From assembly GCA_034530615.2 (NCBI GenBank), contig JAVRCV020000025.1:32001-96000 (forward strand): a stretch of 64,000 nucleotides of DNA. Reading direction: 5' to 3'. Shown piece after piece: positions 34,026 through 38,616 of the stretch (position 1 is its first letter; each line of letters opens with the position of its first letter). A model generated the notes under the pieces. That model did no database searches. It was not told the DNA's origin and worked only from the letters and a program-made list of their open reading frames with translations. The stretch is from Aulosira sp. ZfuVER01. GTDB lineage: Bacteria; Cyanobacteriota; Cyanobacteriia; Cyanobacteriales; Nostocaceae. The position numbers and the translations under genes are program-made.

Positions 34026-35069
34026 ATGACCAAAACTATTAGTAGTCGCGACAGGTTAAGTCCGCAGCCGCAAGAAAGTTCTGGCTTAATCTCTGCTCAA
34101 ACTGAGAGCGATGAACGAAAACTGAATAACGAAAGTAGGGTAACAGAAGCACAGTCAAACGTGCAACTGTCTTTGGAGGGATGGCGAATTGTTCACGCCA
34201 GCAATGGACGCATACGCATCCGCGCTCAAGAGGGTGGCTTAGAATCGCAATTAGAGGCTATATCCCAATATTTACAGCAATATCAGGGAGTTAGGGAAGT
34301 AACCGCCAATGCGGATACAGGTAGTTTAGCGATCGCCTTTGATCCCAATCGGTTATCATTGCCGCAGATATTGGCGAAACTGCAAGAATTTGGCATTCAC
34401 CAAATTGAGTCAGCTAGTAACGCGGATCTGTTTGCGGAATGGAAATCAGTGGATTTTTGGAAAGAGCAAACAATTTCCTTAATTCCCTTGATGACAGGGT
34501 TAGCAGTCACAAGAGGCTTGGGGATCGCTGGTGTAGCTTCAATTCCCGTCTATATGATTGCAGCAAATGCAACTCGTTGGGTAATCGGCTCTAGAGAACC
34601 AGAAATTTCGCGATCGCAAATCAGTAACAGCAAATCTACACAATTTTCATCTGATGATGAAACAATAGCTTACAGTGTTGTCCATGCAATCCCCGGACGC
34701 ATTAGGTTGAATCTGCCGCGAATCGCCAAGGATCGCGCCTATGGGAGACGATTAGAAAGGCTGCTGAAAACAGACGCTCAAGTCACCAGCGTGCGGATTA
34801 ATTATAGTGCGGCATCGGTAGCGATCGCCTATCAGGATAGCGAGATTAGCCTAGATTATTGGGTAAATTTGATGGAGTTGGCTTTACAAACGCACCCACA
34901 AACCAAGCCAGTCAAGACGATAGAACAGCCACCAGTTACTCAACTAACGGAAACTCTTGAGGACAAAAGTCCAGAGATATCAAGTCTATGGGCAAATATG
35001 AAGCCTAGCGCTATGTCTTATTCTTTAGCCTTTATGGCGAACTTTCCGTTAGATACATTGAGTGAATAA
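34026..35069 (+). CDS. membrane protein with two HMA-like (HMA2) domains
   Basis: two R-rich HMA-like starts (VHASNGRIRIR, VHAIPGRIRLNLP) flanking a Gly-rich hydrophobic segment. Confidence 0.75.
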   Translation: MTKTISSRDRLSPQPQESSGLISAQTESDERKLNNESRVTEAQSNVQLSLEGWRIVHASNGRIRIRAQEGGLESQLEAISQYLQQYQGVREVTANADTGSLAIAFDPNRLSLPQILAKLQEFGIHQIESASNADLFAEWKSVDFWKEQTISLIPLMTGLAVTRGLGIAGVASIPVYMIAANATRWVIGSREPEISRSQISNSKSTQFSSDDETIAYSVVHAIPGRIRLNLPRIAKDRAYGRRLERLLKTDAQVTSVRINYSAASVAIAYQDSEISLDYWVNLMELALQTHPQTKPVKTIEQPPVTQLTETLEDKSPEISSLWANMKPSAMSYSLAFMANFPLDTLSE

Positions 35070-35211
35070 GCACAAGCGCATCTAATTACATCTGCTAGCG
35101 ATCCCGCAAGGGTAAATCAAGGACTTCAGCAGAATTTGACAGCAACCAATCTCATCAGATTGGGAGTTATTTTGCCATCAAGTTTCATCCACCTTATATG
35201 AGAGACAAGGA

Positions 35212-37464
35212 ATGGTAAAACACAGGGTTCAATTAGCATCGCCACCTAAGCCAATAGTGCCTGAGATTGTGGAAGCGCATCACGAGAACATTCACAACCG
35301 CAGACAGATTCCCCAAATTGCTTACAGCGTTGTTCATGTAACTCCGGGAAGGATCAGGTTTCGCGTCCCTCGGTTACGCCACGATCGAGACTATATTCAG
35401 CGTCTCCAAACCTTATTGCAAGCCGATCCCCTCGTTACAACTGTGCGGATCAAATCGGCGGCGGCATCGCTAGTTGTGACTTATGAATCTAGACAAGTAC
35501 CTGAGTCCAAAATGCGATCGCATTTGATCTATCTAATCTGGGCTGCTAGCGATCGCACAATGGTAATTACAGTTGCTAATAAGCCATCGAGTCCGCAACC
35601 ATCCAACGAGACAGAAAATTCTTGGCCTGGTTTACAACTTTCTGCTGTCGCTACTGGTTTAGCAGTGTTAGGGGGGCCATTGGGATTACCAATTCCGCCG
35701 ATTATGGTGGCGGGAACGATTGCCCTAGCTACATTACCAGTTTTTCAAAGAGCATTAGTAGGGATTACAGCCGAACGCAAACTTACGATCGACTTTTTGG
35801 ATTTAATGGCGATCGCGATTACTACCGTCCAAGGTCATTTTCTCACACCCTCGCTGATGCTGAGTTTAATTGAAATTGGTGAAAATATCCGCGATCGCAC
35901 GGCTCGTTCTTCCAAACTCCAAACTCTCGATTTACTCAATTCTCTAGGACAGTTTGTTTGGGTAGAACGCAATGGGGAGAAGCAACAAATCCCTATTCAA
36001 GATGTCCAACGAGGGGATACAGTCATTGTCTATCCTGGCGAGCAAGTCCCAGTAGATGGTACTATCCTGCGAGGTAAAGCTCTGTTGGATGAGCAAAAAC
36101 TCACTGGCGAATCGATGCCCATCTTGAAAAAGAAGGGACAAGCGGTTTTTGCTTCTACCTTGGTGCGCGAGGGACGGATTTATATTCAAACTGAATGGGT
36201 AGGCAATGATACCCGTGCTGGACAGAGTATTAAATTAATGCAAGAAGCTCCTGTCCACGATACACGCATGGAAAACTATGCCACGAAAATTGCGGAACGA
36301 GCAGTTGTGCCAACTTTGTTACTAGGAGGGGCAGTATTTGCCGTAACTCGTAACCCAGTACGGGCAGCTAGCGTCCTCACTCTAGACTTTGCTACAGGGA
36401 TTCGAGTATCTGTACCAACTACAGTTTTGGCAGCACTTACCTATGCAGCCAAGCACGGGATTCTCATCCGTAGCGGACGAGCATTGGAACAACTAGCCGC
36501 AGTTGATACGATTGTGTTTGATAAAACAGGCACTCTCACAAAAGGGGAAGTGACTGTGATGGGTGTGGAAAGTCTCAATCCAGAAACTTCAACTACGAGG
36601 GTGTTGGAACTAGCCGCAGCCGCCGAACAACGACTAACACATCCAGTAGCCGAAGCAATAATTCGTTATGCTGAAGCCGAGAAAGTGACAATTCCTAACC
36701 GCCAGAAATGGAACTATCAACTCGGTTTGGGAGTACAAGCAGAAATTGACGGCGAGACAGTTTATGTAGGAAGCGATCGCTTTTTGCGTCATGTTGGCAT
36801 TGACATGGCACAGCAAAACGGGCATCTTCAGCGGTCAGCATCAATGATTTATGTCGCTAGCAACGGTCAACTTCAAGGTAAAATTAAATATAGCGACATT
36901 CTCCGTCAAGAAAGTCGGGAAGTAATTAGCCACTTATTGAGAGTCGAAGGTGTGGAAGTGCATATGCTCACCGGAGACAACAGACAAACAGCCAATAAAG
37001 TTGCAGCCGAACTGGGGATTGCACCGACACACACTCACGCCGAAGCTTTCCCGGAACAAAAAGCCGCAGTTGTCCGCGAACTACACGAACAAGGTAAGAC
37101 AGTTGCATTTGTTGGGGATGGGATCAATGATTCCCCTGCTTTAGCCTACGCAGATGTTTCTGTGTCCTTCGCCAGTGGTTCAGAAATTGCCCGGGAAACC
37201 GCAGACGTAGTGCTAATGCAAAATGATTTGCATGGTTTACTAGAAGCGATCGCGATCGCCCGTCAAGCCAAGCAATTGATTCTCCAAAATACCGGTATTG
37301 TTGCAGTACCTAACTTAGGGGCATTAGTAATAGCTGTGATATTTGGTTTAAATCCCTTAGCAGCGACAGTAGTTAACAACGGTTCGACTGTAGTTGCAGG
37401 CGTCAACGGTTTGCGTCCCATCTTGAAACATTCACCAAAGAAAGTTATACCATCGGCAGGATGA
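35212..37464 (+). CDS. heavy-metal P1B-type ATPase, FezB/P1B-6-like
   Basis: LTGES, DKTGT, THP, MLTGD, VGDGIND; N-terminal HVTPGRIRFR; DFATG instead of CPC and NNGST in the last TM. Confidence 0.88.
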   Translation: MVKHRVQLASPPKPIVPEIVEAHHENIHNRRQIPQIAYSVVHVTPGRIRFRVPRLRHDRDYIQRLQTLLQADPLVTTVRIKSAAASLVVTYESRQVPESKMRSHLIYLIWAASDRTMVITVANKPSSPQPSNETENSWPGLQLSAVATGLAVLGGPLGLPIPPIMVAGTIALATLPVFQRALVGITAERKLTIDFLDLMAIAITTVQGHFLTPSLMLSLIEIGENIRDRTARSSKLQTLDLLNSLGQFVWVERNGEKQQIPIQDVQRGDTVIVYPGEQVPVDGTILRGKALLDEQKLTGESMPILKKKGQAVFASTLVREGRIYIQTEWVGNDTRAGQSIKLMQEAPVHDTRMENYATKIAERAVVPTLLLGGAVFAVTRNPVRAASVLTLDFATGIRVSVPTTVLAALTYAAKHGILIRSGRALEQLAAVDTIVFDKTGTLTKGEVTVMGVESLNPETSTTRVLELAAAAEQRLTHPVAEAIIRYAEAEKVTIPNRQKWNYQLGLGVQAEIDGETVYVGSDRFLRHVGIDMAQQNGHLQRSASMIYVASNGQLQGKIKYSDILRQESREVISHLLRVEGVEVHMLTGDNRQTANKVAAELGIAPTHTHAEAFPEQKAAVVRELHEQGKTVAFVGDGINDSPALAYADVSVSFASGSEIARETADVVLMQNDLHGLLEAIAIARQAKQLILQNTGIVAVPNLGALVIAVIFGLNPLAATVVNNGSTVVAGVNGLRPILKHSPKKVIPSAG

Positions 37465-37535
37465 AGTGAAGATACCGATTAGTGTACGCTAGAACGCTTT
37501 CTTACAAGTTTCCACATCACCAGAGGTAATTTACT

Positions 37536-37878: not shown

Positions 37879-37886
37879 GAAAAGGA

Positions 37887-37931
37887 AACCACAGATGAAC
37901 ACAAATAAACACCGATTAATTATCTGTGGTT
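37887..37931. repeat. dispersed decamer-based repeat (related copy near 33272-33315)
   Basis: AACCACAGAT GAACACAAAT AAACACCGAT TAATT ATCTGTGGTT; second copy AATGCAGATAAACACCGATAAATTATGTGTG. Confidence 0.55.
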
Positions 37932-38004
37932 CCAAACCATAACCGGGATTTTCGCCCTCTATATCTAAAGACAAAATCCAAAATTGAATCAGGAGGGTAA
38001 CTGT

Positions 38005-38616
38005 GTGAGTACAAATAACTATGGCCATCTCACCCAAATGCCACAAATCATAGAGCAAACAGCTATAAGCATCCCATCTAAACTTATACCTACAAAAATC
38101 ATTAGTGATACTCCAGGGCGATTGAGGTTGAGAATTGCACCGCGCGATCGCCAAGCTGGAAAAATGCAAACAATTGCCAATGTATTAGAAGCAAAACCTA
38201 ACGTTAGTCAGGTAAAAACCAATATTCACGGCGGTAGTATTCTGATTCATCACGATCGCGGAGATGACAGTTTAGCAAACGTGCTAGCTACGCTCCAAGA
38301 TATAGGTATGATTTTTGTCGATATCGCTGAGGGTAATACTGAGGCATCCGTTGGTGTTTCAAATGCAGTAGTGGATTTAAATAAACGAGTACAAGCAGCA
38401 ACAAACAGTGCTGTGGATCTGCGCTTTTTGTTTCCCTTAGGACTCAGTATTCTGGCTGTGAGACAATTGCTGATTAAAGGCTTGCAATTTGAAACAATTC
38501 CTTGGTACGTTTTAGCCTGGTATGCCTTCGATAGTTTTCTCAAATTGAACCAACCCAGACAACTACAGCCTTACCGGGAGTATACGCGATCGCAACCAAC
38601 TAATGCAGATATCTGA
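38005..38616 (+). CDS. HMA2-domain membrane protein
   Basis: SDTPGRLRLRI HMA-like start, C-terminal TM DLRFLFPLGL..PWYVLAWYAF; GTG at 38005 follows AGGAGG (ORF open from 37984). Confidence 0.75.
   Translation: MSTNNYGHLTQMPQIIEQTAISIPSKLIPTKIISDTPGRLRLRIAPRDRQAGKMQTIANVLEAKPNVSQVKTNIHGGSILIHHDRGDDSLANVLATLQDIGMIFVDIAEGNTEASVGVSNAVVDLNKRVQAATNSAVDLRFLFPLGLSILAVRQLLIKGLQFETIPWYVLAWYAFDSFLKLNQPRQLQPYREYTRSQPTNADI

Follow-up and report, generated by a model that had tools for sequence, protein, structure and literature searches.

A four-gene relative of ferrosome clusters in Aulosira sp. ZfuVER01 with a predicted Pho box and a pump free of sulfur and histidine ligands: a possible hard-cation store under phosphate limitation

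Ferrosomes, whose mineral has been described as ferrous phosphate, are specified by fez gene clusters, and their P1B-type pump FezB was defined in the preprint of Grant and Komeili (bioRxiv 10.1101/2020.01.10.902569), in which the arginine-rich (R-rich) motif is given as common to FezB-related pumps too and cyanobacteria are unmentioned in the available main text. In mycobacteria, the DUF1490 protein PacL and the P1B-6-like pump CtpC form efflux platforms at the plasma membrane (PMC13043812, PMC13460109, bioRxiv 10.1101/2021.10.01.462712), and DUF1490 has been related to DUF6110. The HMA_2 domain is the CoBaHMA domain, which is present on calcyanin and also occurs next to cax, and in Microcystis co-expressed DUF5132 and CoBaHMA genes flank cax and the calcyanin gene ccyA (PMC8890360; bioRxiv 10.1101/2024.07.07.602159); binding of CoBaHMA to anionic lipids has been hypothesised (in a passage citing Gaschignard 2024), and spherical Ca-rich clusters have been reported in Anabaena PCC 7120. 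The literature found on DUF5132, PF19991 and PF17195 was limited to the work on Microcystis calcyanin neighbours, none of the ferrosome and FezB/FezH papers listed concerned cyanobacterial clusters, as judged from titles and the opening lines of abstracts, and in the literature found no membrane or pump genes were identified for the cyanobacterial calcium-polyphosphate body. Here we analyzed a cluster of four + strand open reading frames at 34026-38616 of a 64,000-nucleotide stretch (the window) of the cyanobacterium Aulosira sp. ZfuVER01 (contig JAVRCV020000025.1, positions 32,001 to 96,000), which a preliminary description had presented as ferrosome-like with altered metal ligands.

The analysis suggested that the cluster may be a fez-related operon, induced by phosphate (Pho) limitation, which pumps a hard divalent cation (Ca2+ being most likely, followed by Mg2+ or Mn2+) and probably delivers it to a membrane-bound store rich in phosphate or polyphosphate, and we give this reading as a whole a probability of roughly 0.4. 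The absence of sulfur and histidine ligands, together with a predicted phosphate-starvation switch, points to calcium or a similar ion instead of iron; for the substrate taken alone, a hard cation other than iron is slightly favored. The features of the cluster, with domains from a Pfam search, are as follows.

34026..35069, + strand: gene 1, 347 aa, two CoBaHMA (HMA_2) domains flanking a weakly hydrophobic segment (Kyte-Doolittle about 1.5), putative orthologue of all2006
35212..37464, + strand: gene 2, 750 aa, P1B-type ATPase with an N-terminal CoBaHMA (HMA_2) domain and E1-E2 ATPase and Hydrolase domains
36385..36399, + strand: DFATG of gene 2 (residues 392-396), which replaces the CPC helix motif
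37375..37389, + strand: NNGST of gene 2 (residues 722-726), in place of the HNxxT of FezB
37536..37844, + strand: gene 3, 102 aa, DUF5132 with one membrane helix and an acidic helix
37984..38616, + strand: gene 4, 210 aa from TTG, HMA_2 (CoBaHMA) with membrane helices, FezC-like

The four co-oriented genes and domains of the preliminary description were recovered, and so were the R-rich GR[IL]R motif in three of the proteins (two copies in gene 1, one each in genes 2 and 4) and the absence of CxxC from all four. Genes 1-3 are free of Cys, and the single Cys of gene 4 (residue 7) lies upstream of the GTG at 38005, which is preceded by AGGAGG and is the likely start of this gene. The four-gene order is constant across the displayed loci of the window type, by which we mean DFATG/NNG pumps (18 loci, clusters or genomes for context counts and 20 sequences for invariance counts), and an ATPase homologue was counted as matching (E<=1e-120) in 39 of 301 cyanobacterial-phylum genomes; given this conservation of order and these matches, the cluster is not a chance arrangement.

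The catalytic core of the pump is intact (TGES, DKTGT, HP and GDGIND), the protein passes the generic P1B model TIGR01525 and no specific Cu or Zn equivalog, and its AlphaFold model (pLDDT 88.9) has the P1B fold and matches ZntA, ATP7B and CopA best. A degenerate pump is ruled out by the intact core and the pLDDT of the model, and the annotated identity of a Cu/Zn/Cd exporter is ruled out because the ligands are absent and canonical pumps are encoded elsewhere in the genome. Alignment to CopA and to the genome's own pumps placed DFATG on A-C-P-C-A of CopA, with F393 at the first Cys and T395 at the second, and confirmed NNGST in the last helix, so that the Cys and His ligands of the D[YF]SCA/HN type are indeed replaced; the Asn of transmembrane helix (TM) 5 is retained, the ligand position of TM6 is Asn, and residue 722, at which NNGST starts, is Met, His or Asp in the canonical pumps of this genome. 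Residues D194, D197, E224, D392, T395, R398, N701, N722 and N723 are invariant in 20/20 window-type pumps and E221 is kept in 19/20. The predicted ion site would consist of Asp, Glu, Asn and Thr only, without Cys, His or Met. A pump without any Cys has a probability of 6e-4 at the local background frequency, although its relatives do carry a few Cys outside the ion site. Sites with oxygen donors only suit hard cations such as Ca, Mg or Mn better than Cu or Zn, and Fe2+ remains compatible with such a site.

Phylogenetic analysis separated this pump from FezB. Both a 147-row FastTree tree, from which rows under 600-680 aa or without the P-domain motif were excluded, and a 48-row IQ-TREE tree with 14 cyanobacterial and 11 FezB-type rows placed it in a D[FY]xTG/[NS]NG clade (support 100/99) that is the sister (100/99) of the FezB-type pumps, which form their own clade (100/98) and were defined by motif (DYSCA/HN) and not by named experimentally studied FezB sequences. 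DYSCG/HN and CPC/HN rows branch outside this pair of clades, with the canonical pumps further out, and forcing the 14 cyanobacterial and 11 FezB-type rows into one clade was rejected by the approximately unbiased (AU) test with a p-AU of 1e-23. Membership in the P1B-6/FezB clade in the strict sense, which the preliminary description had put forward for checking by phylogeny, is thus not supported, and the window pump is almost certainly a sister of FezB rather than a FezB, judged from these trees and from the motifs: it has DFATG where FezB has D[Y/F]SCA and NNGST where FezB has HNxxT, and the R-rich N-terminal motif that it does carry (H42, R47, R49, R51) is not FezB-specific. A placement of the clade between two ferrosome-forming lineages was considered and failed, as the DYSCG/HN rows could be assigned only to Peptostreptococcaceae and Clostridium relatives and not to a studied FezB. 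The cyanobacterial members are monophyletic and fall into three main groups, the window type (DFATG/NNG), a DFVTG/HNG type in which His is regained, and the C/D types.

The partner proteins are also related to those of fez clusters, as the profile comparison with FezA and FezC proposed in the preliminary description showed. The DUF5132 protein of gene 3 matched FezB-adjacent proteins of the DUF6110 type with a hhalign probability of 93.5% (E 2e-7 over the soluble helix) in comparison to 0.2% for mismatched controls, and gene 4 matched FezC-like proteins with 97%, against a template of only 4 sequences. Three of six FezB-adjacent small proteins tested are DUF6110 and two are weakly DUF1490; gene 3 itself has no DUF1490 match at E<=0.1, and the pump has no CPC or HN. 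On these profile matches gene 3 is homologous to FezA-like DUF6110 and, via DUF6110, to PacL-like DUF1490. The small protein with GxxxG and an acidic tail was described correctly for this copy, which has GIIAG and, among its last 47 residues, 12 D/E and 4 K/R, but GxxxG is not a family trait, since in the DUF5132 alignment (34 rows) only G20 is at least 90% conserved and the first Gly is variable. Likewise, the kinship to fez stands in the profiles and the sister clade, but the parts list is not diagnostic of a ferrosome, because the R-rich motif is unspecific, CoBaHMA occurs on calcyanin and next to cax, and mycobacterial efflux platforms are built of related parts.

Just upstream of gene 1 lies a conserved predicted Pho box, which the preliminary description had overlooked, together with a second candidate regulatory site.

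33971..34000, + strand: predicted Pho box or SphR site, built of 8-bp direct repeats that 3-bp linkers separate, with good units at 33982-33989 and 33993-34000, a degenerate unit at 33971-33978, and its end 25 bases before gene 1
33813..33826, + strand: NtcA-type site, imperfect (GTA-N8-CAC), within the 3' end of the def gene (from the sequence and PMC3898017)

The repeat architecture was found by aligning the region before gene 1 of 11 genomes, and it is that of the cyanobacterial Pho regulon, in which tandem CTTAACCT-like 8-mers with 3-bp linkers stand upstream. Su et al. 2007 gave CTTAACCT repeats as the SphR site and listed all2006 of Anabaena PCC 7120, a hypothetical protein, with a predicted box at -38 (PMC1906773); the letters of that published box are those in three of the compared loci. 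With the same definition for all sets (two CTTAACCT units matched with <=4 mismatches, no more than 250 bases upstream), a box was found upstream of 14/18 window-type clusters, 11 of them at <=3 mismatches, in comparison to 0/20 His-bearing paralogues, 0/15 clade C/D pumps and 4/266 background genes, the relatives counted being kin and hence not independent. The window-type boxes mostly end 19-38 bases before the start and include genomes of four other families, and the four clusters without a box include one truncated cluster and one that shares its locus with feoAB. The only two perfect Pho boxes of the Aulosira genome lie 344 bases before the polyphosphate kinase gene ppk1 and 75 bases before a PBP_like_2 binding protein gene. 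Among the numerous regulators of the OmpR/PhoB family encoded in the genome, none scores above the PhoB cut-off and SphR was not singled out. Taken together, Pho control of the cluster is quite probable.

The NtcA-type site matches the one given for the strong all2006 region, fifth among the listed peaks, in NtcA chromatin immunoprecipitation of Anabaena PCC 7120 (PMC3898017), and its conservation is not independent because it is also coding. The box letters and the match of the NtcA site to the def 3' end identify all2006 as the putative orthologue of gene 1; by gene order only, all2004 and all2003 would be the pump and DUF5132, and we infer all2006-all2002 as the operon counterpart. In that strain all2003 went up 4.0- and 1.8-fold after nitrogen step-down, and FurA depletion gave 1.08 for all2004, -1.54 for all2003, 2.1 for all2006 and 4.7 for all2005 (low counts). 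A sigma-70 scan stayed at chance level.

To see what travels with these pumps, we compared at least 120 non-cyanobacterial clade loci, from a pattern scan of named genomes (flanks fetched for 80), with 112 FezB loci from gut-heavy metagenomes, so that the two sets differ in taxa. All clade counts below are among the matches listed, 73 of which fall in one 70% cluster; dereplication at 70% gave 23 clade and 30 FezB clusters. DUF5132-type and gene 4-type partners were found in 75/120 and 72/120 clade loci. The iron uptake gene feoB was found in 0/120 clade loci in comparison to 19/112 FezB loci (0/23 and 9/30 by cluster), and within cyanobacterial loci it accompanies 11/20 His-bearing paralogues, 1/18 window-type pumps (a locus that also holds the His paralogue) and 0/13 C/D pumps. 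Genome-wide, feoB is present in 20/20 His-paralogue genomes, 11/18 window-type genomes and 130/301 background genomes; it was not found in the genome of Aulosira sp. ZfuVER01, as in 7/18 window-type genomes. The association with iron homeostasis genes seen for fez clusters is therefore missing here, which disfavors iron as the pumped ion and favors the different substrate that the preliminary description had raised as a possibility.

For calcium the neighborhood signal is modest. Calcium/cation antiporters were found in 9/120 clade loci in comparison to 2/112 FezB loci; they adjoin clade pumps in Nitrospirota, Desulfobacteraceae and cyanobacteria, and once lie directly upstream of a window-type pump. 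P2 pumps, by motif count, occur in 1/120 and 2/112 loci. The polyphosphate kinase gene ppk2 was found in 23/120 clade loci and 0/112 FezB loci, and beta carbonic anhydrase (15/120) and LCIB-type carbonic anhydrase (12/120) were likewise confined to clade loci, each of these three signals coming from 1-2 clusters. In Nitrospirota and Desulfobacteraceae (L150, L128, L098, L087, L118), operons hold a Na/Ca exchanger and/or cax, a clade pump, two DUF5132, two CoBaHMA proteins and two PilT-like ATPases, and in alphaproteobacterial loci (L099, L106, L081 and related) a clade pump stands with DUF445, ppk2, a beta or LCIB-type carbonic anhydrase and an ion channel. In one genus, 3 loci have a gene for the alkaline phosphatase PhoX less than 8 kb from the cluster (e.g., L053:13774-15939), and PhoX was not found in the Aulosira genome with one query.

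Paralogues of the pump appear to be divided among different contexts. The His-regained paralogue (DFVTG/HNG) adjoins feoAB (L032, L035, L054, L060, L044-L046) and is a better candidate than the window cluster for a cyanobacterial iron store; in genomes with both paralogues it is the window-type copy that the scaffold genes accompany, and the two pumps may thus share them. Calcyanin gave 6 strong hits in the 301 genomes, and 5 of these 6 genomes (G113, G123, G259, G137, G187) carry a clade C pump, which is found in only 10/301, making the clade C pump a candidate calcium pump for intracellular carbonate bodies. The window cluster as a marker of intracellular amorphous calcium carbonate was ruled out, as one query detected no calcyanin in window-type genomes; a first version of the GlyZip regular expression gave no matches. 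In clade C/D islands the pumps are accompanied by cax, P2A, MntP-like, DUF1345 and lipid kinase genes. Four CoBaHMA islands (L033, L034, L371, L379), one of them on a Nostoc plasmid, hold two or three clade pumps, some without DKTGT or GDGxND, as well as cax twice, a P2A pump, DUF1345, MntP-like, ArsA-like and single-GlyZip proteins.

All seven HMA_2 matches of the Aulosira genome fall in the window cluster and one other locus (L001:5740-12752, G000:C8), which encodes an HMA_2 protein, an HMA_2-PAP2 protein, an HMA_2-P2A Ca-type ATPase and a metK-like gene, with a DUF5132 gene on the other strand. The CoBaHMA-fused P2A pump has PEGL and the Asn/Glu/Thr/Asp calcium motifs, and orthologues of two genes of this locus follow the window-type cluster in two other genomes (G225 and G267). 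The metK-like gene follows the CoBaHMA-P2A pump, or nearly so, in 5/6 other displayed loci.

In the mechanism that we propose, SphR would bind the repeat and the operon would be induced together with ppk1 and phosphate uptake genes. The DUF5132 protein would gather the pump into membrane clusters in the manner of PacL and FezA, and the basic CoBaHMA domains may dock the partners on anionic lipid or on this acidic scaffold. The pump would then carry Ca2+ or a cation like it, the probable destination being a phosphate-rich vesicle, and ATP-driven pumping would supply counter-ions that balance or mobilize stored phosphate. An internal compartment, suggested by the sisterhood to FezB, the FezA/FezC-like partners and the Ca-rich clusters of Anabaena PCC 7120, comes out at slightly less than an even chance. 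Several results weigh against this reading. The same parts build plasma-membrane platforms in mycobacteria. The window box has two mismatches, and such sites are barely above the shuffled expectation (4 observed vs 2.7 expected), so that the Pho-box case rests on conservation; in addition, the strong NtcA peak and the 4-fold induction of all2003 show other control. As many as 11/18 window-type genomes have feoB, and one cluster (G107) shares its locus with feoAB and the His paralogue. By 70% cluster, the calcium antiporters are weak (3/23 vs 1/30) and ppk2 is confined to 2/23, only 1/18 window-type loci has a calcium antiporter, and genomes with the cluster show only a mild excess of the CoBaHMA-P2A pump (8/12 vs 6/20 same-family genomes). 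Calcyanin was not found in the 18 window-type genomes with one CoBaHMA-type query, which divergent types could escape.

A plasma-membrane efflux platform without an organelle, in which DUF5132 clusters the pump and a hard cation is exported during phosphate limitation, either ridding the cell of counter-ions that polyphosphate sets free or providing periplasmic phosphatases with Ca, Fe or Mn, is somewhat unlikely. It would fit the plasma-membrane location of PacL/DUF1490 with CtpC, the DUF6110 and weak DUF1490 matches of FezA-like neighbors, the branching of CPC/HN-type pumps just outside FezB and its sister clade, and the Pho box and nearby PhoX genes, but the nearest characterized relative is the organellar FezB, FezC-like membrane proteins are present here and none is described with PacL pairs in the sources at hand, and one query yielded no PhoX in this genome. 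A true ferrosome with changed ligands, loading Fe2+ into iron-phosphate vesicles tied to phosphate status, appears unlikely. Sisterhood to FezB with homologous partners, the ferrous phosphate mineral, the ability of Fe2+ to bind oxygen donors, a His-bearing paralogue nested in the same clade, beside feoAB in 11/20 loci and possibly sharing the scaffold genes, and NtcA control, which fits the iron demand of nitrogenase, all speak for it; both FezB ligands are replaced, however, feoB tracks the His-bearing and not the His-less pumps and was not found in this genome, and all2004, the pump by inferred gene order, changed only 1.08-fold on FurA depletion. More unlikely still is a membrane-remodeling module, in which CoBaHMA would recruit lipid enzymes along with the pump to domains of anionic lipid while lipids are exchanged under phosphate starvation, ion storage being incidental: CoBaHMA is fused to PAP2 and diacylglycerol-kinase domains in or near these clusters, and its hypothesized lipid binding and the Pho box agree with such a role, but PAP2 is found in only 2/18 window-type loci, and ion transport is indicated by the acidic and amide residues that are invariant in the membrane helices.

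Returning to a Pho-controlled cation store as the preferred reading, a wider and doubtful extension is that the ferrosome chassis, a DUF5132/FezA scaffold with CoBaHMA address domains, would be an organelle kit of general use in bacteria that swaps of the pump ligands have retuned. The His copy with feoAB would serve iron, the calcyanin-tracking copy calcium carbonate bodies, and the Pho-controlled copy would build and load the cyanobacterial calcium-polyphosphate (acidocalcisome-like) body. Two points are new in the present analysis, namely a predicted Pho box that is specific to the clade and a division of the paralogues into three according to feoB, calcyanin and Pho control. The cluster connects ferrosomes, PacL efflux platforms and calcyanin carbonate bodies, which have been described separately, via one scaffold and domain family. 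The operon, as inferred all2006-all2002 of Anabaena PCC 7120, is genetically tractable, and the specific predictions are that phosphate starvation induces it, that its thiol-free P1B pump carries a hard cation and that Ca/P bodies depend on the cluster. Should there be a P1B pump for calcium, or an organelle of the ferrosome kind that stores something other than iron, a question asked openly in a 2026 review would be answered.

The cluster is preceded in the window by dnaA, htrA and def and followed by lysR and ilvD; with the listed homologues, these neighbors assign it to Nostocales. A short tandem repeat (TTGGGCA/TGGGGCA) lies after htrA at 33185-33220; repeats of this kind are common in heterocystous cyanobacteria. 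A short photolyase-like FAD-binding protein (279 aa, judged from its translation) is encoded at 43514-44353.

In comparison to fez clusters, the locus shares the R-rich N-terminal domain on the pump and partners, the conserved Asp before the CPC position, the TM5 Asn, a small one-helix protein, an HMA-plus-membrane protein and a sister pump clade; it differs in DFATG/NNGST instead of D[YF]SCA/HNxxT, in its separate clade, and in its oxygenic host and predicted Pho control, with no feo or Fur/DtxR-type context seen here. FezH, the second R-rich pump of large fez clusters, is similarly R-rich and uncharacterized with non-FezB membrane motifs, but it is judged by cluster context and not by motif, and the assignment of the window pump to FezH was ruled out by the count of FezB-type pumps in clade loci (0/120); beside FezB in L268, a second R-rich pump has CPC and falls nearest the CPC/HN rows. 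Like PacL-Ctp pairs, the locus encodes a small membrane protein with a Glu/Ala-rich helix together with a pump whose N-terminal domain is without CxxC, but CtpC retains CPC and HN and exports Zn, while DUF5132 here has no His-rich metal motif (zero His), additional CoBaHMA membrane proteins are present, and a DUF1490 scaffold with a CPC/HN pump is not what the cluster encodes. With the calcyanin (ccyA) system the cluster shares HMA_2, that is CoBaHMA, and the pairing of DUF5132 and CoBaHMA genes; it differs in that ccyA with (GlyZip)3 was not found here with one query, and the available passages of the calcyanin papers do not describe the window pump.

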